The position numbers and the translations under genes were made by a program. From Escherichia phage phiC120, in sequence record KY703222: a DNA stretch of 64,000 nucleotides, one strand, 5' to 3'. The notes beneath the pieces were generated by a model that was given only the letters and a program-made list of their open reading frames with translations, was not told the origin of the DNA and searched no databases. Of the stretch, positions 3,136 through 45,096 are shown piece by piece. Every line of letters starts with the position of its first letter. The stretch's first letter is position 1.

Positions 3136-4038
3136 TTATAGACCAGCTAACAGGTCATCGAGGTCACCATCATCAGAGGATGAGGTAGAGCTCATGAAGT
3201 CATCTTCAGTTTTTGCAGAACTAAAGGCTTCCATGTCTTTATCAAAATCGTCAAGGTCAGAAGCAACTTTATCTGCAACAGAAGCTGCTGCGGCTGCTGC
3301 ACCACCAAGAGCGGCAGTACCAAGAACCTTAGCGAAAGATTCATTTAATTTTTCAAAAGATTTGAACTGGTCTTTAGCCGTCAAAGTAGTAAGGTCTACC
3401 ATCTGGTCATACAGTTCTTTCTGGAATGCTTCGTCATTAATACGAGGAATTTCAGATTGACCCAAGAATTTAGATTCGTCATAGTTGCTAAAACCGGAAA
3501 CCTGCTTAGCTTTCAGAACAAAGTTAGCACCTTCAAACGGACAAGTAACGTCAACTGGAGTTTCACCCATTTCGGTATCAACAGCAATCATTGCATTGAT
3601 TTTGTCCCAAATCTTTTTACCGAAACGATATTTAAATACTTTACCTTCGTTATCTGGAGCTTGAGGGTCTTTAACAACCAGAATATTAGCCCAATAAGAA
3701 GTTTTACGTTTCAGTTGAGAATATTCAGTTTTGTTGGTATTGTATAGGTCATTTTTACTAATGTACTGACATACAGGACAAGAGTCGTAATCACCGTGTG
3801 TAGAAGAACAATTTTCAATATACCATTTACCATTTTTCTTGAAACCGTGGTTAACAAGAATTGCAAATGGTAGTGCATCATCAGTTTTTGCTGGCAAGAA
3901 ACGAATTACCGCTTGACCATTACCTGATGCATCTAGCTTCAGCTTCCATTCGCCTTTATCTTCTGAAGAGAAACCTTTGTTACCGTTCAGTTTAGCCATT
4001 TGAGCAGCGAGGTCAGCAGTAGATTTACGTTTAAACAT
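3136..4038 (-). CDS. 32: Single-stranded DNA-binding protein gp32
   Basis: 300 aa; near-identical over long stretches to T4 gp32 (MFKRKSTA...[14 protein letters not shown]...acidic C-terminus DLDDLLAGL). Confidence 0.97.
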
Positions 4039-5397: not shown

Positions 5398-6315
5398 TCA
5401 GAATTCATTAATTACACTTGTTAATTTAGAAAGACCCGATTTTACAAAGTATGAATAAATCTTGCCTTTAGGTTGTTGTTTATACGAGTTATAATACTCT
5501 ATAATGGTTGAAGCAATATTATCAGGGATATAATCAAAATCAATGAGAACCAAATTTTCTTGATACCGTTTATATTCTTCTGCACTTAATAATACTTCAG
5601 CTTGAGAACGGTCATTAGCAATTGCTTCAATAATTGATGTTTTCATGCTTGGAGTTCGTTCACCTTCAACTCGAGTAAACCAGAAGTCACCACGAACTCG
5701 AACAGATGCAACACCATCTTTACGGTCGCCTTTAAGAATTTTAGTCATGCAATCAATTTCGGCAGAACCATTCTTAATTTTAACCCATTTTTTCTGTGGT
5801 GGCGACCACTGTTTAACGTTAGGATATTTGTGTAATTGTGTAAAGTCACCATCTGATGCAACAATACACACCTTATGACCAGCTAATGACAAATATTTAG
5901 TTAATACACCGATATGGTCATCCGCTTCGTATTTGTCAATATCCATTACAACATATGGCATATATTTCTTAATCTCATCAACAACTTGATGAAGTGCAGT
6001 AAAATATCCTTCCCAATCCCACTTTGAAGCTTCACGATCGGTTTTACGATTTTTCTTATAATAATAAGCAAAGTCACGACGCCAATATCCAGAAGTAGCG
6101 TTATCCATGCACAATACAAATTTTGTATAACCTTGCTTACGGAACATCACTACGTTTTTACGAATTGAATTCAAGACTACGTGACGAACCATCGGAACAG
6201 TAATTTTATCACCCTCTTCAAAGTTGTTTAATGCAGCTGCCAATGCAATGTTACTAAAGTCTGCAAGCGCAATACCTTCTTTGTAATCTTCATCCAACAT
6301 CATTTCTAAATCCAT
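5398..6315 (-). CDS. rnh: RNase H (5'-3' exonuclease)
   Basis: 305 aa as in T4; synteny before gene 34. Confidence 0.9.
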   Translation of the reverse strand: MDLEMMLDEDYKEGIALADFSNIALAAALNNFEEGDKITVPMVRHVVLNSIRKNVVMFRKQGYTKFVLCMDNATSGYWRRDFAYYYKKNRKTDREASKWDWEGYFTALHQVVDEIKKYMPYVVMDIDKYEADDHIGVLTKYLSLAGHKVCIVASDGDFTQLHKYPNVKQWSPPQKKWVKIKNGSAEIDCMTKILKGDRKDGVASVRVRGDFWFTRVEGERTPSMKTSIIEAIANDRSQAEVLLSAEEYKRYQENLVLIDFDYIPDNIASTIIEYYNSYKQQPKGKIYSYFVKSGLSKLTSVINEF

Positions 6316-15396: not shown

Positions 15397-16176
15397 ATGG
15401 CAGTAGTTGGAGTTCCTGGCTGGATTGGAAGTTCAGCCGTAAATGAAACGGGCCAGCGCTGGATGAGTCAAGCAGCTGGTCAATTAAGATTGGGTGTTCC
15501 TTGCTGGATGAGTCAATTTGCAGGTCGCTCAAGAGAAATTATTCACACTCTTGGAGCAGACCATAACTTTAATGGTCAATGGTTCCGTGACCGTTGTTTT
15601 GAAGCCGGTGGCGCTCCTATAGTGTTTAATATCACAGGCAACTTAGTATCATATTCTAAAGACGTTCCTTTATTCTTCATGTATGGTGATACTCCTAACG
15701 AATATGTTACTTTGAATATTCATGGTGGTGTTCATATGTGGGGCCGAGGTGGTAACGGTACTGTAAACGGAAACCCAGGCACAAATGGCGGCGATGTAAT
15801 CCAAAATGATATCGGCGGAAGACTTCGTATTTGGAACTATGGCGTTATTGCATCAGGCGGTGGTGGTGGTGGTGCAGTGTCATTACAGAATAGCTGGGCG
15901 CCAAATGCTACAGCAGGTGGCGGTGGTGGTAGACCATTTGGCATCGGCGGAGGCGGCGTTAATTGGCCGGGTGGTAATGCTAGTTATGACGCCCCGGGCG
16001 GCGCCGGTTACACTTCCCAATTCGGCGGAGGCAATGGCGGCGATGCTGGAGGTCGGGGCGGAGATGGATGGGGTAATCACTTATCTAGATCTGGTGGCGG
16101 TGCTCCTGGCAGAGCAGTATTCGGAAGTTCACCGTCATGGGGTGCTACAGGCACAATCTACGGCTCCTGGATTTAA
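15397..16176 (+). CDS. 38: Receptor-recognising adhesin gp38 (T2-type, glycine-rich motifs)
   Basis: 259 aa; conserved N-terminal half; C-terminal half has poly-Gly blocks separated by variable segments. Confidence 0.85.
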
Positions 16177-16202: not shown

Positions 16203-16221
16203 TTGATAAATGGGAGGTAAT

Positions 16222-16881
16222 ATGGCAGCACCAAAAGTATCATTTTCGCCTAGTGATATTTTATTTGGGTTGCTAGACCGCATTTTCAAAGATAACGCCT
16301 CTGGAAATATTCTTATTTCAAGAGTTGCTGTTGTAGTTCTTTTGTTCCTAATGGCACTAATATGGTACAAAGGGAGTATTTTTATGGATTATTACGTGAG
16401 GTCGAAATATGATACTTACACAGAAGTAATTCAAAAAGAAAGAAATACACGATTTGAATCTGCGGCTTTAGAACAACTACAAATAGTCCACGTCACATCA
16501 AGGGCGGATTTTAGTTCGGTGTATTCTTTCAGACCTAAAAATCTAAATTATTTCGTCGACCTTATTGCGTATGAAGGTAAGTTACCTAGCACAGTAACTG
16601 AAAAATCTATGGGAGGATTTCCTGTCGATAAAACAACAGCAGAATATTCGGTCCATTTAAGTGGACTTCACTTTACTTCTAAAACAGATTTTGCTTTCTT
16701 ACCTACCAAAACAAAAACTCCGGAATTAGCATATATGTATAGTTGTCCTTACTTCAATTTGGATAACATATATGCTGGAACTGTTTCTATGTATTGGTAT
16801 AAGGGGTCGGACGTGTTAAATGAAGAACGCTTGGCTGCAATATGCAACCAAGCAGCAAGGATATTAGGGCGAGCTAAATAA
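16222..16881 (+). CDS. t: Holin T
   Basis: 219 aa from ATG 16222 (GGGAGG RBS); strong identity to T4 holin; ORF track start 16210 lies in the RBS. Confidence 0.9.
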   Translation: MAAPKVSFSPSDILFGLLDRIFKDNASGNILISRVAVVVLLFLMALIWYKGSIFMDYYVRSKYDTYTEVIQKERNTRFESAALEQLQIVHVTSRADFSSVYSFRPKNLNYFVDLIAYEGKLPSTVTEKSMGGFPVDKTTAEYSVHLSGLHFTSKTDFAFLPTKTKTPELAYMYSCPYFNLDNIYAGTVSMYWYKGSDVLNEERLAAICNQAARILGRAK

Positions 16882-22273: not shown

Positions 22274-22303
22274 ACTATACCATAATCCTACTGTGTTGTA
22301 AAC
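22274..22303 (-). promoter_or_regulatory. Sigma70-type early promoter (GTTTAC-18-TATAGT)
   Basis: Minus strand GTTTACaacacagtaggattatggTATAGT. Confidence 0.45.
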
Positions 22304-23650: not shown

Positions 23651-24586
23651 TTATTCTGCAAATAATTCAGTAACGTCTGAAATTACTTCATAACGACAAG
23701 TACGCATCTTAGCATCACCATAGTCAACTGGGATGGATACAACATCACGTGGATGAACTTTAACCTTAACAACTTTATCTGAGCTAGAACCAAAGTAACG
23801 AATATATGATTTAGCGCAAACATGTAGACCGCGGGAGCAGGTTTGTGTATCATCATCGTTAACACGAGTACGAGGCATTGAAACAACTTTACCTGGTGAG
23901 TTATCAAATGTACCGCTATAACAATCTAAATAGTCTTTACGAACTACTTTCCACGCATAGAAATACCCATCTTCAGTGATTTCAATATCATTTGCAACCA
24001 AGAAGTCGAATAAACGTTGTACAGCTTTTTCGCTTGGGTTTTCTAACAGGTTTTCAAGGAATGGCAGATAGAATTTAAAGTCTTCGCCTTTTTCCATGGA
24101 ATCAATAATACGATTAACCAGTCCTGAACGAATTTCTATACCTTGATAAAATAAACTACCGCCTTCAATAGTAACATTACCATCAACAAACTTAGTAATA
24201 GCTTTCTTGATGTTAATAAGTTCGACAGCTTTACTAAGGTTTCCTGCGACCAGATTAGCTTTAATTTCTTCAAAATTTGCATGACTTGATGGGGTCGCAT
24301 TGTATGCTACGCGTCCTTCAATGATTGAAATAAATTTAGATGACGCGTTCCATATGATTTCTGGACGATGTCCGCCGATAATAGGTTCATCATTTTCTGG
24401 GACCTGTTCTTCGTCTTCAAATTCAGCTGCTTTCTCTTCAGCTTTAAAATTCTTAACAATCTTACGAAGAGTGTCGGTGGAAATATTGAAGTAATCAGCA
24501 ATTTCCTGACGGGTCCATTGGCCTGATTTAACCAGTCCGTAAGCTTCTAACTGTTCTTCTTGGGACAAGCATTTAATATTGTACAT
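23651..24586 (-). CDS. rIIB: rIIB protein
   Basis: 311 aa (T4 312); long identical C-terminal stretches recalled from T4 rIIB. Confidence 0.93.
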   Translation of the reverse strand: MYNIKCLSQEEQLEAYGLVKSGQWTRQEIADYFNISTDTLRKIVKNFKAEEKAAEFEDEEQVPENDEPIIGGHRPEIIWNASSKFISIIEGRVAYNATPSSHANFEEIKANLVAGNLSKAVELINIKKAITKFVDGNVTIEGGSLFYQGIEIRSGLVNRIIDSMEKGEDFKFYLPFLENLLENPSEKAVQRLFDFLVANDIEITEDGYFYAWKVVRKDYLDCYSGTFDNSPGKVVSMPRTRVNDDDTQTCSRGLHVCAKSYIRYFGSSSDKVVKVKVHPRDVVSIPVDYGDAKMRTCRYEVISDVTELFAE

Positions 24587-24595
24587 AATGTTTCC

Positions 24596-26809
24596 TTATT
24601 TGGCCGCTTCCACGGCCTTCATGAATTTAACGATTTGAGCGACCTGTTCTTTGGAAAGAGTACCACGTCGTCCCATGTAGTCTGACACAATATGATAATT
24701 GGTTTCGAATTCAATAACCATTTTATCATCATTATCGTAAGCATTATCTTTAAGCTTATCGAAAATTTTAGCACACAATTCTAACTTCTTATTCAGTTCT
24801 CTGTTAGTAGCACCTGAGAATCGATTCCATCCCCAACGATTATTTACTGTTGAGAGTTTTGCAAAATCTTTACTGATTTCTTTGTTCTTAGAGCTAAAAT
24901 ACTTACTAAGGAAGTTAAGCTCTTCATTACGAGTAATATGATTCAAATAAGGTTGAGCTCTACGACTTGGTGATACATACTCATCATAATCCACTTTATC
25001 GATTAGCGTAATATAGTCATTAATTGATTTTTCGAACAAGCATTCTACTTCACCAAGTTTACGAACTTTCTTAGCAATCTGCGGACGAACTACAGTGAAC
25101 TCTTTAATACCTGACAAATCAGCAATACGGGTCAAGAAATTGGAGTCATAGTTCAACCAACCTTTATCTGCGTCAAGACATTCAGCATTAGAACGATTAC
25201 GAACTATAGCATAACCTTGGATTTCATCTGCTTCACTTGCCGGAATAAAGAGGTCTTCTGATACCCAAACATCGTTTTCATTCTTAAAGAATCGATGAGC
25301 ACTTGGCGATTTAGGACGAGGCTCATTAGTCCGTTTCCTGACTTCAATCCATGGCTTAACGATTTGTAAAAGCTCTGAAGTCTTGTACATGTTAATGTTG
25401 TCGCCATCAAAGATAACTTTAAGGCGTTCCAGAAGTTTCATTGCATCTTCGTCTGTAGGGTCAACGAATATTACGCTTTTACCAAAACCGCGCGGAACTT
25501 TACCAGTTAATTTAACCTCGTCTTTAGACATTTCAATTGAATTAAGAGCTCGCATTAATGGAACGCGTCCCTTAACGTCGTCAATAACAATTTCAACGTT
25601 TTTAATGTTAATGCCAATCAGACTGTTAATTGAAATGGTTGCCGTTGAGCTACCGCTTTCACGAATACGGCGAAGACGAGTGGATTCAACGATATCGTAT
25701 ACTACGCCAAGATTACACCACTCAGGCCCCATTTTAAAACGTTTGTACAACTCAGAATAAGTTAGTTGTTCTTTGGAGTATTTCAGTGATTCAATATTAG
25801 ACCCAGCCTTTTCCATGTATTTACGAGCGGTATAGCCAAGAGAATCAATTTCACGGAACACATGACGTGGGTATTTACAATCAATCCATTTCTTAGAATC
25901 TTCAGCGAACAATTTAGCATCTATTTCTGCAACGCGTTTATGGATATTTGCTACTGTACGTTTATCAAACGACAATGCTTCACGAGACGGGGCTACATCT
26001 AGTTCACCCATAGGGAATTTAATATAAGCTGTAGTGCATCGTGTCATCATCCATGTTTGTTCTTTAATAACACTTCCGATTGGATATACAATACCGCCAT
26101 AAACAGCCATGATATTACCACGTTCACCCCATGGAGCTTCCTTGGCCAAATATACATCGTCAAATTCAGGGAAGTATTTAATATCTTTAACACCACGAAC
26201 TTCTGCAATATCACCTAGAGGACGCATAACATATGCAATTTCGGATGCAAACTTTTCAAAATCTTCCGGGTTAACCGGTACAACTACTTCTACACCCGTA
26301 CGGTCGTCAGGACCCATCTTATCTACAAATGTCGGCTTAATTTGTGGACCTGTGTCATCTTGGTAGATTACGTAACCACGAACTTCACCGTTGTGATAAG
26401 ACGTAAGGTTAAACGTATCAGTATATGCTAATGGAGCTTTAGAACCGAGTCCGAATCCACCGATGAAATCGTTACTCGATGTTTTAGTTGAAGCAAAATA
26501 TGAGTTATAGATTCCTGGCTCTTCGTCATTACCTCGAATGGTGAAATCACTCATACCAGGACCAAAGTCTCGAACTACAAAACGTGGGTCTAAACGACCT
26601 GGAGCCTGAACAATAAACTTATCAGTGCAACCATTAAGAATTTGTCCATCGATACAGTTTGTAATTAATTCACGTACACAAGCCAATTCTTTGTTTGTAT
26701 AAAGGTCATTAGACAAAATCTTATAAACTTTGCTATTGCCTTGAATAGTGAATGCTGTGCTCTTACCACCTGAACCAATAATCGTTTCTTTAGCCGTTTC
26801 AATAATCAT
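24596..26809 (-). CDS. rIIA: rIIA protein (GHKL ATPase-like)
   Basis: 737 aa (T4 725); N-terminus MIIETAKETI... like T4 rIIA. Confidence 0.93.
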   Translation of the reverse strand: MIIETAKETIIGSGGKSTAFTIQGNSKVYKILSNDLYTNKELACVRELITNCIDGQILNGCTDKFIVQAPGRLDPRFVVRDFGPGMSDFTIRGNDEEPGIYNSYFASTKTSSNDFIGGFGLGSKAPLAYTDTFNLTSYHNGEVRGYVIYQDDTGPQIKPTFVDKMGPDDRTGVEVVVPVNPEDFEKFASEIAYVMRPLGDIAEVRGVKDIKYFPEFDDVYLAKEAPWGERGNIMAVYGGIVYPIGSVIKEQTWMMTRCTTAYIKFPMGELDVAPSREALSFDKRTVANIHKRVAEIDAKLFAEDSKKWIDCKYPRHVFREIDSLGYTARKYMEKAGSNIESLKYSKEQLTYSELYKRFKMGPEWCNLGVVYDIVESTRLRRIRESGSSTATISINSLIGINIKNVEIVIDDVKGRVPLMRALNSIEMSKDEVKLTGKVPRGFGKSVIFVDPTDEDAMKLLERLKVIFDGDNINMYKTSELLQIVKPWIEVRKRTNEPRPKSPSAHRFFKNENDVWVSEDLFIPASEADEIQGYAIVRNRSNAECLDADKGWLNYDSNFLTRIADLSGIKEFTVVRPQIAKKVRKLGEVECLFEKSINDYITLIDKVDYDEYVSPSRRAQPYLNHITRNEELNFLSKYFSSKNKEISKDFAKLSTVNNRWGWNRFSGATNRELNKKLELCAKIFDKLKDNAYDNDDKMVIEFETNYHIVSDYMGRRGTLSKEQVAQIVKFMKAVEAAK

Positions 26810-26821
26810 ATTTTTCTCTCA

Positions 26822-27022
26822 TCACAAGTTACGTTTAAAAATTTCCGCTACTTCAAGAAGTTCTTCTTTAGTAGCTGTATCGGTTTGTATTTTATATCGA
26901 ATTTCTTTAAAGCGTTCTTTAAAGAACTCTGCTGACTCGATATCAAAAAATCTTTGGATAAGCCGGAATTCCCGGAGCACCGCTTTATCAAAAAGTTCCA
27001 AGTTCACGTTATATGTTCTCAT
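26822..27022 (-). CDS. Hypothetical protein (66 aa, rIIA.1 position)
   Basis: ORF track; synteny. Confidence 0.5.
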   Translation of the reverse strand: MRTYNVNLELFDKAVLREFRLIQRFFDIESAEFFKERFKEIRYKIQTDTATKEELLEVAEIFKRNL

Positions 27023-27047
27023 AATATTCTCTTCAGTAGATTCCTAG

Positions 27048-27098
27048 GGCACTATTACTAAAGACCATATAATCTATCATCTTATGTGTAATAGTGCC
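27048..27098 (-). repeat. Perfect 11-bp inverted repeat (GGCACTATTAC / GTAATAGTGCC) around a 29-nt AT-rich loop
   Basis: Read directly; lies between the glycosyltransferase stop and the rIIA.1-like ORF. Confidence 0.7.
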
Positions 27099-27114
27099 TC
27101 AGGCGATTCAGGAT

Positions 27115-28215
27115 TTACGCTGTGAAGATTTTATCCCACATCGCAACAACTGCATCTCGGTTATACTTCTTCCATACTGCTTCAGCACGTTTAACTCGAG
27201 CTTCGTACGTGTCAGTGAATTCTAATACAGCTTTTGTGTAAAGCGCAACTACTTCTTTCTTAGGAGTAGAGGAATCAATTTCTACACGCACAGTATCTGG
27301 GTCATATTCGAATGTCGCATGCGGATAATCCTTAAAAACTAACTGAATTACAGGGACACCTTTAGAAATGGCTTCAATAGAACTATTCTCTACCGTACCT
27401 GTGTCAGGACACGTATTAATAAGTGCTTTAGCTGTTTTAAGACGTTCCATAATTTCACTGTGTGGAGCATCAATAATAACAGGATACTTAGCCGGTGGTG
27501 CCCATTTGCTTGGACAATAACCAATACCATTTTCGCCTAGTGCTTTAATCGCTTCAAGAGCAACATCAGTACGACGCATTTTAGTGTCATAACGTTGTGC
27601 ACTAATAATCAGATCAGTCGCCGGAAGAACTTCAGGTTTCTCATTCAAACAAATAACCGGATAATCTTCGGCTTCAAACAACGGATTTGCTCGCCAATAA
27701 TCATAATCAATTTTGTCAGTCAGACCTGAAGTCATATAACAATATTTGCGTTCAAATTCACGGAAGGCTTTAGTAGGAGCATAACTCTTACCACCGTTCT
27801 TATGAATTTGAATAGTCTGGTCCCAAATTTGAACAATGCCACGAGATACCGGTTCAAATGGTGTTGCCATAAAATTCTTATGAACTTTAGAGAGGCCCGC
27901 GTCTTTAATTGCCTGAACAGTTAGTTTGGTCGGTTCCATTGTAACAACGAAATCGTACTCATTAATGCCGGCTAGTTCAACAATCTTACGAGCCATAGTA
28001 TAACTCATACCTAGACTGAATTTAGTCAGATGACCAACAGGATGATGATTAACCTTCCAATCACCAAATGTGTCATTATCAAAACCGATATAATCAATAT
28101 CGGCACCGATAGAAACTAAATATTTCAACACATTTAAATGTACTGCTTCAAGACCACCTTGTACACGTTCAGGATTAAATGGGACTGCACGAGATGGGAT
28201 AAACATAACTTTCAT
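27115..28215 (-). CDS. GT-B fold glycosyltransferase (candidate DNA hmC glycosyl/arabinosyl transferase)
   Basis: 366 aa; C-terminal TGTVENSSIEAISKGVPVI resembles the GT4 catalytic signature; no counterpart at this position in T4. Confidence 0.7.
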   Translation of the reverse strand: MKVMFIPSRAVPFNPERVQGGLEAVHLNVLKYLVSIGADIDYIGFDNDTFGDWKVNHHPVGHLTKFSLGMSYTMARKIVELAGINEYDFVVTMEPTKLTVQAIKDAGLSKVHKNFMATPFEPVSRGIVQIWDQTIQIHKNGGKSYAPTKAFREFERKYCYMTSGLTDKIDYDYWRANPLFEAEDYPVICLNEKPEVLPATDLIISAQRYDTKMRRTDVALEAIKALGENGIGYCPSKWAPPAKYPVIIDAPHSEIMERLKTAKALINTCPDTGTVENSSIEAISKGVPVIQLVFKDYPHATFEYDPDTVRVEIDSSTPKKEVVALYTKAVLEFTDTYEARVKRAEAVWKKYNRDAVVAMWDKIFTA

Positions 28216-28241
28216 AATTAAGCCTTATTAAAATTAAAATG

Positions 28242-28259
28242 AAGCTCCCGAAGGAGCTT
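28242..28259 (-). terminator. Hairpin (AGCTCC-UUCG-GGAGCT) overlapping the HNH gene stop
   Basis: 7-bp stem, CTTCGG loop, followed by ATTTTAATTTT. Confidence 0.45.
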
Positions 28260-29055
28260 AGGACATCCAACACATTTTATAACCTTTGCAGGTTCTGTTA
28301 GGATTATTTAATGCTTTCAATATATTAGAAGACCCTATACCTAAATACTCCCTTAATTCATAAAGATAGTTAAAATCAATAGTTTCACCTGTTTTTACAC
28401 TTGTGATTCTTATAGGCCTTCTTTCATATTTAGATTTATACAACTCTCTAGTCTTAGCTTTAGTTTCTTCTGACCTAGGAGTGTATGGTTTAAATCCTTT
28501 TGTTTTAAATGTTTCCATTCTTGATTTAGTTATTTTATCCTGATGTTCTTTTGTTTTTACAGGTGCTTTTCGCCCATTCTCCCAAGATAACTTGTTGGCC
28601 TGTATTATTTTATCTATTGCTTCTTGCGTATGAGTTTTACCATAAAATGGATTTAATTCGCCTATACGTTGTGAAGCAATATGTGACATTAATTCTCTTG
28701 TTGCTTTAGTATGTTTTTTACCTTTAAATGGGTTGCCATTTTTAGCAATCCATTCTTTCATAAATCTAGAGTGCTCTTTAGAGAATTCTTGTTTAAGCCA
28801 ATCATAATCTCTAGAATTTCTAGCTCCTATGTAAAAAGCTCTAATAGCCATAAGCATAGAACGGTTCTTATGAATTTTATAAAGCAATAAATGGGCGATA
28901 AAATGCTCTCTAGGGGTCATTTTAACTAGATTTGATTTAGCATTACTCCCGCCCATAGATTTAGGCAAAATATGGTGAGTTTCAGTATAATTAGGAATAG
29001 TGCTGCGGTTTTTAGCCGCAGCGATAAGTTTATCATAAATTTTACGATAATTCAT
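28258..29055 (-). CDS. HNH homing endonuclease (Mob-like, with NUMOD3-type repeats)
   Basis: HNH core TETHHILPKSMGGSNAKSNLVKMTPREH; repeated NPF(K/Y)GK(K/T)HT motifs; ATG at 29055 overlaps gene 39 stop (TAATG); ORF track start 29070 is TTG. Confidence 0.8.
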   Translation of the reverse strand: MNYRKIYDKLIAAAKNRSTIPNYTETHHILPKSMGGSNAKSNLVKMTPREHFIAHLLLYKIHKNRSMLMAIRAFYIGARNSRDYDWLKQEFSKEHSRFMKEWIAKNGNPFKGKKHTKATRELMSHIASQRIGELNPFYGKTHTQEAIDKIIQANKLSWENGRKAPVKTKEHQDKITKSRMETFKTKGFKPYTPRSEETKAKTRELYKSKYERRPIRITSVKTGETIDFNYLYELREYLGIGSSNILKALNNPNRTCKGYKMCWMS

Positions 29056-30875
29056 TATCCTAGCATCCAATCTTTACGGAGTTCAGGGTCGTTACCCATG
29101 AGCATTTCAAATAGTTCTTTCCAATTTTCAGGAAGTTTAACTACGTCGTACACAGGGTTTTGAATCATTTCTTTATATTCATCTCGCTGAAGTGAGCCCA
29201 ATCCCTTGATGTATCGAATACTATGCTTAGGAAGCGTATCTTTAGCTTCTTCATACTCAGCTACAGTATAAAACCATTTTTGAGATTTGCCAATTTGTGC
29301 AATAATTACAGGTGTTTTAACAAAGCGAATACGTCCTTGTTCAAACAATTCAGGCCAATTACTAAAGAAAGCAAGCAAAGCCGGATAGATACTTCCAAGA
29401 CCGTCATGATCGGCATCGGTCATAATTGCAATATTACGATAGTTCGTATTCTCTGCCTTTTCACCAAGAATAAGACCTGTGATAGCACAGATATCGAATA
29501 ACTCTTTGTTCTTCATCATATCAGCATATGACATACCCCAGCTATTCATCACCTTACCACGTAATGGGAATCCGCCGTGTAGTTCACGGTCACGAACATC
29601 AATGAGATATCCAATTGCCGAATCACCTTCTGTTAAGAACAATGTCGTATCTGCATCTTTACCGCATTGGTTAGCTTTAATATGCTTATGAACCTTAGCT
29701 TTAGTTGCCTTTTTAGCTGCTTTAGTTTCTGCAGCCTTTTCTGCTGCCAATTTACGAGCTAATGCTGCTTCAACAATAGGCATAATCAAGGATTCGTTTT
29801 TAAGAAGTGCCTGAGCAATTTTCTTAGCATCTAATTGGATATGATTACGAATATCACCATACGTTGACGTTAAACGTTCTTTAGTCTGAGAATCAAAACG
29901 CATGTTGCTCATGTCTCTAATAAACATCAACATTGTGAGGCATTCTTTAACACGAGCTTTAGTGACTTCAATACCCTTATATTTCTTTTTAATACCCGGC
30001 AAAAGATGTTCGCAGATATCATCCATTACACATTCAACATGATGACCACCATTTTTAGTATGGATGTTATTCACATAAGTTAAATGACGGAAGCCATCTG
30101 GTGATGTTGTGAATGCTATAGAGACTTTATCATTTTCTTGAATGATGTTATCTTCACCAAATTGTTTAGCAAATCGTTTAAAATTACCATCAACCTTTTT
30201 ACCATTAAATGTGAACTTGATATCAGGATAAACGACTGCCAATGTTTGAAGTCGGTCTAAAGTAATATCTAAATAAATTTGAGATAAATTATGCTCTTCA
30301 AATGAAGTGAAATCAGGAGTGAAGATTACTTTAGTGCCTTTACCTTTAGATTTCTTAGAAGACCATGATTTGTTTTCCATTCCGTTTGAACAGTTAACAG
30401 TGATTTCATTTTCGCCATCTGACGTGATGCCTGTAAACAACGTAGAGAAGATATTAGTTAAACTACTCCCGACGCCGTTCATACCACCAGTCTTGCGTTC
30501 AGAATCATCACCAAAGTTACCACCGGCCTTTGGAATAGTCCAGGCTGCTACAGGACCAGGAATTTGTTCACCTGTTTGGTCGGTAACTAAACCTTGAGGA
30601 ATACCACGTCCGTTATCTTCCACCGAAACTTGATTATTTTTAATTTGCACATCAATTTTATTTGCAAACTTAAATGATGTACGAATAGCTTCATCAACCG
30701 AGTTGTCAATAATCTCATCGATTAATTTAACCAGACCAGGAACATATTCAACTTGTTGATATTTACCAAACAAAAAACGCTCGTGGGCTTCTTTAGCAGA
30801 AGAACCAATATACATGCCACTACGTTTCTTAATATGTTCTACATCTGACAGTACCTTAATTTCATTTTTAATCAT
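29055..30875 (-). CDS. 39: DNA topoisomerase II large subunit, unsplit (T4 39 and 60 equivalents in one ORF)
   Basis: 606 aa; GyrB-like ATPase and TOPRIM motifs; no separate gene 60. Confidence 0.93.
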   Translation of the reverse strand: MIKNEIKVLSDVEHIKKRSGMYIGSSAKEAHERFLFGKYQQVEYVPGLVKLIDEIIDNSVDEAIRTSFKFANKIDVQIKNNQVSVEDNGRGIPQGLVTDQTGEQIPGPVAAWTIPKAGGNFGDDSERKTGGMNGVGSSLTNIFSTLFTGITSDGENEITVNCSNGMENKSWSSKKSKGKGTKVIFTPDFTSFEEHNLSQIYLDITLDRLQTLAVVYPDIKFTFNGKKVDGNFKRFAKQFGEDNIIQENDKVSIAFTTSPDGFRHLTYVNNIHTKNGGHHVECVMDDICEHLLPGIKKKYKGIEVTKARVKECLTMLMFIRDMSNMRFDSQTKERLTSTYGDIRNHIQLDAKKIAQALLKNESLIMPIVEAALARKLAAEKAAETKAAKKATKAKVHKHIKANQCGKDADTTLFLTEGDSAIGYLIDVRDRELHGGFPLRGKVMNSWGMSYADMMKNKELFDICAITGLILGEKAENTNYRNIAIMTDADHDGLGSIYPALLAFFSNWPELFEQGRIRFVKTPVIIAQIGKSQKWFYTVAEYEEAKDTLPKHSIRYIKGLGSLQRDEYKEMIQNPVYDVVKLPENWKELFEMLMGNDPELRKDWMLG

Positions 30876-30924
30876 GTTGTCTCCTCGTTATGAAGGTATT
30901 CTATCATCCTAAATCTAAAGCAAA

Positions 30925-30940
30925 AAGGGCCGAAGCCCTT
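30925..30940 (-). terminator. Hairpin terminator (AAGGGC-UUCG-GCCCTT then U-run)
   Basis: Overlaps stop of ORF 30939..31364. Confidence 0.55.
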
Positions 30941-31364
30941 ATTTAAATTTAATTTTCTGAAGTGCATCAATTGCAGCCAGGCGCCCTTGTTCACTTTTAA
31001 CTGTAATGACCACATCGCCTGATACGATCACCGAACCATCAACAAATTCTATAGAGCCTTTTTTGAAATCAACAGATGTATCTGGTTCCGGAACTTCTTC
31101 AAAGAATTTAAATTCTGCACCATAAAGCAGAATATCACCTTGCATACTATGAATAGTTCGGCCATAATCGCCTACGGCTTCTACAGCAATAACCGAAACA
31201 CCGTAACCAATCATCTCTTCCACAATAAAATCTTTGGACAATAAAGTAGTATGCAGATTAGTATTAAGACGTTTACCAGTCGTATTAAGAATTCTCAAGA
31301 AATTATCTTCCTGTCCTTTGATAATACGATATTTCTTACCAACTTCAAAACCTTTAAAAGCCAT
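30939..31364 (-). CDS. Hypothetical protein (141 aa; T4 39.1/goF region)
   Basis: ORF track; synteny only. Confidence 0.4.
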   Translation of the reverse strand: MAFKGFEVGKKYRIIKGQEDNFLRILNTTGKRLNTNLHTTLLSKDFIVEEMIGYGVSVIAVEAVGDYGRTIHSMQGDILLYGAEFKFFEEVPEPDTSVDFKKGSIEFVDGSVIVSGDVVITVKSEQGRLAAIDALQKIKFK

Positions 31365-32243: not shown

Positions 32244-32768
32244 TCATTTTAGCAAAATAAAATCAACTTGTTCTGCCAATGAACGTCTAAACATTAATTG
32301 ACAACTTCCGAGGATGAAATCAGGTGCTTCATAGACCGCGATGTAGTATCCTTTAGCTTTCAAGAGTTCAACATCCACCTGGTCATCAAACCATGCATAA
32401 ACCGCGTCAACACTTTCAAATCCAAAATAGAACCCTTGAGCCCAATCTTCACTCAATTCAAATGTGTGCTCAATTCTATAGTATCTTAAGATATTTTGTT
32501 CAAGGAGTTTGTCTTCATTTACAGTAGGACGATTAGGGACATTATAGTTGTCGCCGTGATGGTAGAAGTTACCTGAGATTATTCCATGTTTATCAAGGAA
32601 CTCCCATGTTTCTTCAGAGTTGTCGGTGCCCGACCAACCGTATGGCGAACGAGGTTCTTTATTCCAAGAGGTTTCCCAAATTCTGACGGCTTTACCGTCT
32701 TCGATAGCAATTCCCGGTAATGATTCACGTTGAGTACAAAAACTACGTTCTACGCGGTAAACTAACAT
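32244..32768 (-). CDS. Hypothetical protein (174 aa)
   Basis: ORF track; GAGGAG RBS inside the inverted repeat. Confidence 0.45.
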   Translation of the reverse strand: MLVYRVERSFCTQRESLPGIAIEDGKAVRIWETSWNKEPRSPYGWSGTDNSEETWEFLDKHGIISGNFYHHGDNYNVPNRPTVNEDKLLEQNILRYYRIEHTFELSEDWAQGFYFGFESVDAVYAWFDDQVDVELLKAKGYYIAVYEAPDFILGSCQLMFRRSLAEQVDFILLK

Positions 32769-32772
32769 ATTA

Positions 32773-32817
32773 TTCTCCTCTGGTTGATATGGTTATAATA
32801 TCAAAACCAGAGGAGAA
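32773..32817 (-). repeat. Perfect 13-bp inverted repeat (TTCTCCTCTGGTT / AACCAGAGGAGAA) spanning the -10 of the early promoter; one arm contains the RBS of ORF 32244..32768
   Basis: Read directly. Confidence 0.7.
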
Positions 32818-40836: not shown

Positions 40837-41034
40837 ATGTTTAAACTTCCATCGTTAATCAACGCTATTAAAGGCAATAAAAAGAAAACTGCTATCGCTG
40901 CAATAGTTATAGGTGGCATTATTTCATGGAACTTCGGGATTGCACCGGTGTTAGTTGCTAATGGTATTATAGTTCCTTCCGTTCCGTTGGATACTGTTGT
41001 TGACCTAGCTTTTGCTGTTATAGGGCTAGTCTAA
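40837..41034 (+). CDS. Small membrane protein (65 aa), the only plus-strand gene embedded in this minus-strand block
   Basis: Strong RBS TAAGGAG 7 nt before ATG; two hydrophobic segments; convergent with gene 61. Confidence 0.45.
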   Translation: MFKLPSLINAIKGNKKKTAIAAIVIGGIISWNFGIAPVLVANGIIVPSVPLDTVVDLAFAVIGLV

Positions 41035-42053
41035 ATTTTAGAATACCGAGATAATCTCATTTTAGCATGCAACCCACTTGAAATATTCTGTTTCATATAT
41101 TCTAAAATTTCTTGTGGTGTTGCATTTTCTTTCATTACCATATCATTCACATCCTTTGAACTCCATGGAGCTCTATCCCAGAACATAACACGTTCGCCTG
41201 CATCTACTAATCGCTTCATGCGAGCTATAGTATCTGGATGCCTAGGTTCATTATCCATTACCCATACCCGACGTTCTTTAAATGGCACCACATCTAAATC
41301 TATTGAGCCGCCTGTAATAGCGATTGCATTGGGTATGAATAAACTATCAATAGGGCCTTCCATTACCCAGACGTCTCCTTCCTTAACACGTTCAACACCA
41401 TAAATTTTTGTTGCAGATTCAAAAGCTTTAATAGTGATATATTTTTGAGGAGCATCTTTGCGAAGTGCACGTCCTTGAAATGACTCGGCCTTCCCGTCTT
41501 TATTAAAAATAGGAATCACTAAACGCGGTTCAGGAATCTCTTTCTTATACGTACCAGGTTGAATCTTGTTGACCAATTTAGGCCATTCTAATGTGAACCA
41601 TAATCTGTTCCACGATTCTTTAGGAATACACCGAGACTTAACATATTTCACAATAGGATGCTCTTCAGGCAGCTTGTCCAGACGAGAACAAGACGGCAAA
41701 GAATTTATAGTCTTTTTCTCCGGTTCTGGTTTATGTTCAGGAACCTTTTCAATCTTTGGTTCCATTCTAGCTTTTTCTTTACGAACTTCCATTAGATATT
41801 CACGATAAAGCTCTTCGTCATACTCTTTTAAGTATCCGGAAATTGTATTATGATATTGGCAGTTATAGCAATGCACATTACCTGGAGTACCACCGTAATA
41901 CCATCCGCGGGCTTTCATTGCATCTGTCTGAGAGTCGCCGCAAACTGGACAACGAAACGTTAATTTAAATGTGCTTGAATTATTGATTTGTCTAAAACGA
42001 GGTAGGTGAGAAAACGCACGATAAGCAAATTCATTATCTATCCATTCAGCCAT
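41031..42053 (-). CDS. 61: DNA primase gp61
   Basis: 340 aa (T4 342); N-terminal zinc ribbon CPVCGDS...CYNCQYH and TOPRIM region. Confidence 0.9.
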   Translation of the reverse strand: MAEWIDNEFAYRAFSHLPRFRQINNSSTFKLTFRCPVCGDSQTDAMKARGWYYGGTPGNVHCYNCQYHNTISGYLKEYDEELYREYLMEVRKEKARMEPKIEKVPEHKPEPEKKTINSLPSCSRLDKLPEEHPIVKYVKSRCIPKESWNRLWFTLEWPKLVNKIQPGTYKKEIPEPRLVIPIFNKDGKAESFQGRALRKDAPQKYITIKAFESATKIYGVERVKEGDVWVMEGPIDSLFIPNAIAITGGSIDLDVVPFKERRVWVMDNEPRHPDTIARMKRLVDAGERVMFWDRAPWSSKDVNDMVMKENATPQEILEYMKQNISSGLHAKMRLSRYSKI

Positions 42054-44538: not shown

Positions 44539-44727
44539 TTATCGAAAATCAGCTTCAAAAACTTTCTCGTCATTAACAAATGCTTTAACTAATGCTTTGT
44601 TCACTTCAGCAAGTTGTACCGTAACCCACTCGATTTCTTCACGGTCACCTGATAACATGATATCTTTAGTGAACATCTCACCGCTTTTAAACCAACCGAT
44701 AAAAGTAACTTTAGTTAATTTGCTCAT
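44539..44727 (-). CDS. dmd: Dmd (antitoxin against host RnlA/LsoA-type mRNA endonucleases)
   Basis: 62 aa; resembles T4 Dmd as recalled (V.F.GWFK...MFTK.I......EVNKALVKAF..D.KV.E.D.R). Confidence 0.75.
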   Translation of the reverse strand: MSKLTKVTFIGWFKSGEMFTKDIMLSGDREEIEWVTVQLAEVNKALVKAFVNDEKVFEADFR

Positions 44728-45041
44728 ATTTCCTCACAGAACGCCCATTCAGCATGATAAACTGTAGCACCTTTAGTATTATTCATTTGAACTACGTCTA
44801 CCGGAGAAATTACTCGATAGAGACGTGGTTCACCTCCATAAGAGCGTGCTGCTCGTCCTGCATAAATCTTTGCTAAACCGATATCTTCAGTAAAGAATAC
44901 ACGATTCAAGTTTTTCTTACGTCCGGTTTCAGACAGAACTCCTGTTTCTTCAGGAGGACAAAGCATGTTTTCGATGTTAGCTGAACTACTTGAACCGTGA
45001 TAAAAAATCTTAAATTCTGCTTTACAATCGATGGTTTTCAT
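44724..45041 (-). CDS. Hypothetical protein (105 aa)
   Basis: ORF track. Confidence 0.45.
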   Translation of the reverse strand: MKTIDCKAEFKIFYHGSSSSANIENMLCPPEETGVLSETGRKKNLNRVFFTEDIGLAKIYAGRAARSYGGEPRLYRVISPVDVVQMNNTKGATVYHAEWAFCEEI

Positions 45042-45067
45042 TTTGTTCTCCAGTAGTTGATAGGTCT

Positions 45068-45096
45068 ATAATAACACAACTACTGGAGAAGTAAAC
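45068..45096 (-). promoter_or_regulatory. Sigma70-type early promoter (GTTTAC-17-TATTAT)
   Basis: Minus strand GTTTACttctccagtagttgtgtTATTAT. Confidence 0.45.

Follow-up and report, generated by a model that had tools for sequence, protein, structure and literature searches.

A predicted, unusually stable and clade-specific intergenic hairpin upstream of rIIA.1 in Mosigvirus phages

The 92-nt spacer that separates a putative DNA arabinosyltransferase gene from rIIA.1 in RB69-like phages carries an inverted repeat that is predicted to fold, in the sense RNA, into a long interrupted hairpin. Structure prediction and comparison with relatives indicate that this hairpin is real, clade-specific and unusually stable. 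Our tentative reading is that it may serve as an intercistronic element affecting mRNA stability or processing, and its function is probably ordinary. The element belongs to a familiar class, namely the intergenic hairpins of T4-type phages. Neither Rfam nor the published predictions of promoters and terminators in RB69 include it, and no described family is known to contain it.

The window, meaning the whole 64-kb stretch of DNA that was analysed, comes from an RB69-like T4-type phage (Mosigvirus) in which the local genes are all on the minus strand. In the order of transcription these encode the topoisomerase II large subunit gp60plus39 (29055-30875), an HNH/NUMOD3 homing endonuclease whose gene overlaps the end of the topoisomerase gene (28258-29070), the transferase (a 366-aa ORF at 27115-28215), the 66-aa product of rIIA.1 (26822-27022; Pfam T4_RIIA1), rIIA (24596-26809) and finally rIIB (23651-24586). 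An ordinary intrinsic terminator with a UUCG loop (28242-28259, minus strand) separates the topoisomerase and HNH genes from the transferase gene, and constitutes the opposite border of the clade-specific segment. The spacer itself (27023-27114, assigned to neither strand) is Mosigvirus-specific and single-copy. Over positions 26000-28300 the sequence is 99.9% identical to that of Escherichia phage phiE142 and 96-98% identical to those of about 150 RB69-like Mosigvirus phages. The transferase gene is the orthologue of RB69 ORF003c/gp3, and the earlier label of glycosyltransferase is right because ORF003c has been proposed as a DNA arabinosyltransferase (Thomas et al. 2018, PMC6024577) and is given as putative beta-arabinosyltransferase 2 in a 2026 study (PMC13326640).

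Several features of the neighbourhood and of the related records deserve mention in their own right. The HNH/NUMOD3 gene occupies a site comparable to the one between T4 genes 39 and 60 where the defective mobA is found. The annotation of phage LH01 (PP434429) splits the arabinosyltransferase gene into two ORFs, and the tblastn match also falls in two pieces, pointing to a frameshift or an error in sequencing. The nearest relative, phiE142 (NC_055709), was deposited as a 121-kb circular record classified as Carettavirus. Its region that is 99.9% identical to the window is typical of Mosigvirus genomes of 168-170 kb, and the record may be incomplete or misfiled.

The core of the element is a pair of 11-mers, GGCACTATTAC (27048-27058) and GTAATAGTGCC (27088-27098), that are exact reverse complements 29 nt apart, which confirms the perfect 11-bp inverted repeat reported for 27048-27098 in the preliminary description. 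The repeat lies 17 nt past the stop codon of the 27115-28215 ORF and 21 nt ahead of the rIIA.1 ATG, and it can be extended to arms of 16 nt (27043-27058 and 27088-27103) with 88% complementarity. In the sense (minus-strand) RNA, the 5ˊ arm is CCUGAGGCACUAUUAC (27088-27103), which includes the right 11-mer at 27088-27098, and the 3ˊ arm is GUAAUAGUGCCCUAGG (27043-27058), which includes the left 11-mer at 27048-27058. The intervening sequence (27059-27087) had been described as a 29-nt AT-rich loop. Its length and composition (76% A+T between the 11-mers) are as described, but it is not open. Rather, it is predicted to pair internally (27079-27083 with 27061-27065, and 27075-27077 with 27067-27069), and thereby comprises an internal loop, an upper helix and a terminal loop of only 5 nt, GAUUA (27070-27074). 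The resulting hairpin (27043-27103) spans 61 nt, has an A+T-rich stem, and contains about 23 bp in an irregular series of 4+11+5+3 bp, with a predicted free energy of −28.5 kcal/mol. The helices are interrupted by a 1x1 mismatch, a 4x2 internal loop, and one unpaired G per strand between the two upper helices.

A perfect 11-bp inverted repeat with a loop of 3-60 nt is, when considered alone, neither rare nor significant. First-order Markov sequences of 64 kb contain an average of 1.65 such 11-mers, with at least one present in 77% of them, and the window has five loci with such 11-bp repeats. Further perfect inverted repeats occur at 16728-16776 (11 bp with a 27-nt gap, inside the plus-strand ORF 16210-16881) and at 41033-41110 (13 bp with a 52-nt gap). 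It is as a complete predicted structure that the hairpin is exceptional. Folding of a 111-nt region around it gives a z score of −3.25, with one of 200 shuffled sequences equally stable, and the hairpin ranks third in stability among 25,600 segments of 70 nt taken from both strands (mean −10.1, sd 3.9). Both of the more stable 70-nt folds sit within ORFs, making the hairpin the most stable predicted non-coding local fold in the 64 kb. The strongest folds in the window, reaching −32.3 kcal/mol per 70 nt, are found on the plus strand at 15400-16160, within the G+C-rich part of ORF 15397-16176, where they are probably an effect of composition. The antisense RNA of the hairpin region folds less stably than the sense RNA (−23.7 versus −28.5 kcal/mol) because of G·U pairs that are present only in the latter. 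A single-strand DNA form of the element is also predicted to be stable (−11.6 kcal/mol, z = −3.24).

The preliminary description had judged the structure not to be a classical terminator and to differ from the CTTCGG-loop hairpins that end other transcription units, such as that at 28242-28259. Both statements are borne out. The stem is followed by GGAAUCUACUG, with no run of U nucleotides, and a scan of positions 24000-31000 returned five terminator-like sites, none of which is at the hairpin. Moreover, the TransTerm predictions for RB69 include no terminator at 2428-2519, the nearest being at 3649-3662 (Nolan et al. 2006). An intrinsic (Rho-independent) terminator can therefore be dismissed. 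The only likeness to the UUCG-tetraloop terminators is the presence of a stem-loop at the end of a gene: those terminators combine a G+C-rich stem of 5-7 bp with a 4-nt loop and a T-run, whereas the Mosigvirus hairpin spans 61 nt and has no T-run.

Promoter signals in the spacer are equally unconvincing. The TATAAT-like element noted earlier in the loop is present (27068-27073), but it is on the plus, non-coding strand and thus antisense to all of the local genes. At 17 nt upstream of it, the hexamer agrees with TTGACA at only two of six positions, there is no TG extension, and the element is missing from the promoter scan, which together rule it out as a promoter. On the minus strand there is a weak sigma-70-like match, ATTACA (27087-27092) followed after 17 nt by TATGGT (27064-27069). 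About 20 very clear early promoters occur in the window, with the form GTTTAC(A/T), 16-17 nt, TGnTAT(A/T/G)(A/G)T, and a weight matrix trained on 12 of these gives scores of 10-26 bits for the training sites. By comparison, the ATTACA-17-TATGGT site scores −1.0 bit and ranks 589 among 64,000 minus-strand positions. Because approximately 0.9% of minus-strand positions score as well, about 0.5 such matches are expected by chance in a spacer of this length. The site also lacks the G at −36, the TG extension and the A-rich upstream element. In JS09 and LH01 the −10 hexamer is TATAGT (0 bits), which is a form used by several strong early promoters in the window.

Published predictions for RB69 agree with these results. 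None of its 58 predicted early promoters is located here (the nearest is Pe:6863), and its list of middle promoters likewise has no entry at this site (the nearest is Pm:5538) (Nolan et al. 2006). A T4-type early (sigma-70) promoter in the spacer is thus rejected, given that the best site is at chance level and is not among the RB69 predictions. A MotA-dependent middle promoter is also rejected, as the spacer has no MotA box and the RB69 list has no such promoter; on the minus strand, the closest such box is found ahead of the topoisomerase gene, at 30925. The T4 late promoter TATAAATA is found on neither strand of 27023-27114 (plus, TATAATCT; minus, GATTATAT). The corresponding region of T4 has a canonical early promoter directly upstream of rIIA.1 (GTTTACT, 17 nt, TATAAT), and phage Bp7 has a terminator and an early promoter upstream of its gp105-rIIA.1 unit.

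Elsewhere in the window, the promoter survey revealed arrangements that are of separate interest. At 30925-30940, a good MotA-type middle promoter (TTTTGCTTTA, 12 nt, TAGAAT) comes immediately after a UUCG terminator and ahead of the topoisomerase gene, and this pair corresponds to Pm:5538 and the terminator 5535-5546 predicted for RB69. At 32773-32817 and 45046-45090 on the minus strand, canonical early promoters (GTTTACT, 16 nt, TATTAT) are embedded in perfect hairpins of 13-14 bp whose 3ˊ arms hold the GGAG Shine-Dalgarno sequences of ORFs 32244-32768 and 44724-45041, respectively. This is the classic T4 layout in which the ribosome site is hidden in read-through RNA but not in the promoter-proximal RNA. 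In addition, the minus-strand early promoters at 22302, 22814, 43782, 19730 and 45095 have a conserved box (TATAGTAGTCCTAT or TATTATAGACCTATC) directly after the −10 hexamer that is seen at many early promoters. An inverted copy of this box is often located in the promoter spacer, which places the −10 hexamer in the loop of a small hairpin.

The rIIA.1 gene has a Shine-Dalgarno-like sequence, GAAGAG (27029-27034, minus strand), positioned 9 nt past the end of the hairpin at 27043. The mean predicted probability of being unpaired, from the Shine-Dalgarno sequence to the AUG, is 0.52 in the read-through RNA and 0.52-0.63 in RNAs without the 5ˊ arm. A hairpin that sequesters the ribosome site is rejected, since this site is outside the structure and its predicted accessibility is unchanged. 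The same unchanged accessibility disposes of the converse arrangement, whereby a freed 3ˊ arm would pair with the rIIA.1 start region.

Variation was assessed with 25 copies of the spacer that collapse into 12 haplotypes, and the most divergent records were included on purpose. All 12 haplotypes keep the predicted hairpin, with free energies ranging from −26 to −36 kcal/mol. SQ17 and ESCO47 each have one C to U change in an arm, and both changes leave a G·U pair in the sense RNA. ESCO47 additionally has a C to A change at an arm position that is already mismatched, and a G to C change in TH58 opens the outermost pair. In the type strain RB69, a U to C change creates an A·C mismatch in the middle of the 11-bp stem. 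The most striking variant is shared by AV114, AV115 and AV116, in which an adjacent CT to TC change (27046-27047; CU to UC in the RNA) makes the arms exact complements. The stem is thereby extended by two pairs to a perfect 16 bp, with a free energy of −36.3 kcal/mol. The same change removes an in-frame TAG, which explains why rIIA.1 is annotated in these three phages from an upstream GTG (231 nt rather than 201). This extension is probably a gene-calling artefact.

No compensatory double change across a pair was found among the 12 haplotypes. The relatives are all at least 92% identical, and there is thus little power to detect such changes. The proportion of variable sites is 11/92 for the whole spacer, compared with 98/297 for third codon positions (P = 5.5e-5), which serve as the reference, and 23/594 for first and second codon positions. 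Within the spacer, the values are 6/32 for the arms (P = 0.11 against third codon positions), 4/29 for the inner 29 nt (P = 0.036), and 1/31 for the flanking remainder (P = 1.6e-4). As judged from these counts, the spacer is constrained overall, and least so in the arms. Random substitutions with the same mix of transitions and transversions are no more destabilising than those observed (P = 0.26), so the comparative data neither prove nor exclude selection for structure. Polymorphic stem sites give two G·U pairs in the sense RNA and one in the antisense RNA, numbers that are too small for the asymmetry to be used as proof of an RNA function. The retention of the hairpin in so young a genus could reflect shared ancestry alone.

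The distribution of the element was established with a query of 126 nt around the spacer. This query matched 153 phage records, all of Mosigvirus type, at 96-100% identity and with at least 80% coverage each, and there was no match to phage records outside Mosigvirus. Deletion variants of the spacer are absent from the 153 records, which all retain at least 80% of the query. The transferase gene is present at 95% identity or more in 154 records. The spacer and the transferase gene thus co-occur one-to-one, and we found no relatives that have the repeat without the transferase gene or the reverse. On the rIIA.1 side, homology with T4-type phages ends 12-21 nt short of the repeat, at 27022-27031, and the other T4-type genera share only rIIA.1 in this region. 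The same genome spot is occupied by gene 60 in T4 (60/60.1/mobA, with a 54-nt spacer) and by two small ORFs in Dhakavirus and Kanagawavirus. Local alignment of the spacer with the T4 gene 60-rIIA.1 spacer scores no better than alignment with shuffled sequences (P ~0.72), and residual homology is accordingly rejected.

These data bear on the proposal that the repeat marks the edge of an acquired module containing both the glycosyltransferase and HNH genes. The HNH/NUMOD3 gene is present in the window, phiE142, SQ17 and AV114 and is absent from RB69, ESCO47, AlbertHofmann and SA79RD, and the repeat is the same in Mosigviruses with and without it. Because the HNH gene comes and goes while the hairpin stays unchanged, the two genes do not form one module, and this part of the proposal fails. 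By position the repeat does lie at an edge, with homology lost 12-21 nt away and the transferase gene co-occurring, but it is not the edge of a combined transferase-HNH module.

Copies of the arms do not flank the transferase gene. In the window, the only exact half-sites are the two arms themselves, one site has a single mismatch, and matches with up to two mismatches number 19 against 12.7 expected. A pattern search with 9+9 nt of the arms in viral contigs gave 35 matches, among which the loop is shared only by two Mosigvirus contigs and the rest are unrelated. When the arms were sought as a dispersed repeat in 185,579 prokaryotic genomes, a single unrelated match in Prevotella was returned, and 5,426 E. 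coli genomes gave no match. No Rfam model has a match overlapping 27023-27114, even at E values up to 10. The element is therefore neither a dispersed repeat nor a miniature mobile element, as it is single-copy in each genome and has only unrelated matches elsewhere.

Homologues of the transferase occur in Acinetobacter phages with 41-43% identity. They are at another genome position and are followed by ordinary UUCG hairpins, which argues against the hairpin travelling with the transferase gene. The protein search yielded one cluster at 99% identity and four clusters at 41-43%, with no intermediate relatives, and one Tegunavirus record has a distant homologue. Searches for distant syntenic relatives suitable for a covariation test also came up empty: a metagenome scan recovered four loci with no new variants, and IMG/VR contributed three loci.

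Other candidate roles were likewise rejected. A mini-ORF of 15 codons (MIDYMVFSNSALGIY) that runs from the loop through the 3ˊ arm is not coding, because seven of its eight substitutions alter the amino acid. A replication origin is rejected given that the T4 origin oriA is near soc rather than rIIA.1, and T4 origins have no common inverted-repeat motif. Translational bypass of the gene 60 type is rejected as well. The last sense codon of the transferase ORF is GCG and is followed by UAA, the hairpin begins 11 nt later, and there is no GCG downstream; landing on the sole GCC in the spacer would lead to a UGA stop after four more codons.

Among the three roles initially offered for the repeat, namely an operator, an RNA processing site and a recombination scar, the RNA processing site is the most plausible candidate. 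The hairpin would be carried by a polycistronic early or middle mRNA that extends from the topoisomerase region across the arabinosyltransferase gene and into rIIA.1-rIIA. Such read-through transcripts are expected from the arrangement of signals, since there is no canonical promoter or terminator between 28242-28259 and rIIA, and those reaching rIIA.1 would have to cross the hairpin. There, the hairpin may block 3ˊ-to-5ˊ exonucleases and protect the transferase cistron. Alternatively, it may be an RNase III-type site at which cleavage of double-stranded RNA would part the transferase mRNA from the rII mRNA. In either case, the hairpin would affect RNA decay or processing.

An interrupted helix of about two turns located between cistrons is the shape of both double-stranded-RNA processing sites and 3ˊ-exonuclease barriers, and the early mRNA of phage T7 has intercistronic RNase III sites. 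We favour a stability or processing element because the hairpin is predicted to form in read-through RNA and has this shape. As predicted, it has the structure looked for in an RNase III-type site, with a helix of approximately 20 bp or more, internal loops and an intercistronic position. It resembles the T7 RNase III sites and the exonuclease barriers in lying between the cistrons of an inferred read-through transcript, in its interrupted helix of about 23 bp, or about two turns, and in having no U-tract or promoter. Its sequence is unlike that of any described site, and the likeness is one of predicted fold. Further support comes from the energy of the sense fold (about 23 bp at −28.5 kcal/mol), its retention in all 12 haplotypes, and the lower variability of the spacer relative to third codon positions. 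Several observations weigh against it: variability within the spacer is highest in the arms, selection for pairing was not detected, RB69 has an A·C mismatch, and Rfam has no matching family. A review (PMC3014915) does not document RNase III processing of the early mRNAs of T4-type phages.

The main alternative, possible but doubtful, is that the repeat is a functionless quasipalindrome. It could have originated by a template switch or an inverted duplication when the transferase segment was placed beside rIIA.1, or later, and would persist because the genus is young; its only activity in vivo would be as a single-stranded DNA hairpin that templates its own correction. An adjacent change that perfects complementarity is the classic signature of quasipalindrome-templated mutation, which was first described in the T4 rII region (rIIB). 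The double substitution of AV114, AV115 and AV116, which makes the 3ˊ arm of an imperfect inverted repeat exactly complementary to the 5ˊ arm, fits this signature. Its direction is assigned by parsimony without an outgroup, however, and the same outcome would be expected if a stronger RNA stem were selected for. This alternative also accommodates the concentration of variability in the arms, the lack of significant selection for pairing, the stable single-strand DNA form, the restriction of the element to one clade, and the location of the element 12-21 nt from where homology with other T4-type genera begins again. It accounts less readily for the fact that the spacer is less variable than third codon positions despite the tight packing of T4-type genomes, that the inner sequence formerly regarded as a loop is conserved too, and that not one of the 153 records is a deletion variant. 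An unlikely alternative is that a promoter lies inside the hairpin, as in T4 and the PeSL elements. The weak ATTACA-17-TATGGT site would then replace the canonical early promoter of T4 and yield rIIA.1-rIIA RNA starting at the 3ˊ arm, and only the read-through RNA would fold. The hairpins of T4 e, soc and I-TevI, which sequester a ribosome site and contain an internal promoter, have this order of 5ˊ arm, −35/−10-like hexamers and 3ˊ arm near the would-be start, immediately upstream of a gene. T4 and Bp7 both have early promoters ahead of rIIA.1 (for Bp7, ahead of gp105-rIIA.1), the two embedded promoters at 32773-32817 and 45046-45090 are clear cases in the window itself, and the predicted start falls on the first bases of the 3ˊ arm. 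Moreover, neither hexamer varies among 25 sequences apart from the change of TATGGT to TATAGT in JS09 and LH01, which is toward the strong-promoter form. Nevertheless, a score of −1 bit (0 for the JS09 form) compared with 10-26 bits is a chance-level match, the G at −36, the TG extension and the A-rich upstream element are missing, and the site is absent from both the Nolan et al. predictions and a generic promoter scan. The spacer also has no sequence homology with that of T4. Finally, the 3ˊ arm stops 9 nt short of the Shine-Dalgarno sequence, and since the hairpin leaves the ribosome site uncovered, the usual logic of a promoter in a hairpin is missing.

A protein-binding site is decidedly unlikely. 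It would be either a DNA operator with two inverted 11-bp half-sites, or an RNA operator hairpin through which a phage protein controls translation of rIIA.1 and rIIA. The perfect symmetry of the 11-bp arms and the conservation of the inner part of the hairpin are compatible with such a role, and there is a precedent in gene 43 of T4 and RB69, where a hairpin located about 40 nt ahead of the start codon is bound by the gene product, gp43, and serves as a translational operator (PMC3014915). Yet no candidate binding protein was identified, and substitutions are tolerated in the arms. For a palindromic DNA operator in particular, the half-site does not recur in the window, as the counts above show, and a gap of 29 bp (40 bp from centre to centre) is atypical of a dimeric DNA binder; the suggested operator role thus finds no support. 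It is very unlikely that the hairpin lowers read-through into the rII genes as an attenuator without a U-tract, or that it is the target of the neighbouring HNH homing endonuclease. The PeSL stem-loops of phage RB49 strongly attenuate lacZ expression in vivo (PMC2839356), but the Mosigvirus stem is followed by GGAAUCUACUG and no terminator is called. With regard to an endonuclease target, the homing endonuclease gene is nearby, but the repeat is identical with or without this gene and its distance from the HNH insertion point is 1.1 kb. The PeSL elements (Arbiol 2010; Comeau 2014) do resemble the Mosigvirus hairpin in being intergenic stem-loops that border a clade-specific gene at a spot that varies between genera. 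However, they form a family of repeats that combine a strong promoter of the sigma-70 type, a short terminating or attenuating stem-loop, and the Shine-Dalgarno sequence and ATG of the following gene, whereas the Mosigvirus element is single-copy, lacks a canonical promoter, and has an A+T-rich stem with no T-run after it. A PeSL mobile cassette is rejected on this basis, as only the location at a variable border fits. Highly improbable, too, is a more elaborate version of the RNA-level reading, in which the hairpin would be a Mosigvirus-specific RNA operator or processing switch that replaces the T4-style early promoter before rIIA.1 and ties rII expression to arabinosyltransferase read-through under a phage or host RNA-binding factor.

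The general understanding of T4-type phages is unchanged by this element. For annotation, the site should not be labelled a terminator, a promoter or a module scar. The AV114-type variant offers a tidy natural example of a perfected quasipalindrome, beside the genes in which the mechanism was discovered. If the hairpin does shape the fate of the mRNA, it would reveal how the rII genes and a DNA-hypermodification gene are expressed in RB69-type phages without the early promoter that T4 has at this spot, and it would provide a defined, easily mutated element for the study of mRNA processing in a model phage genus.
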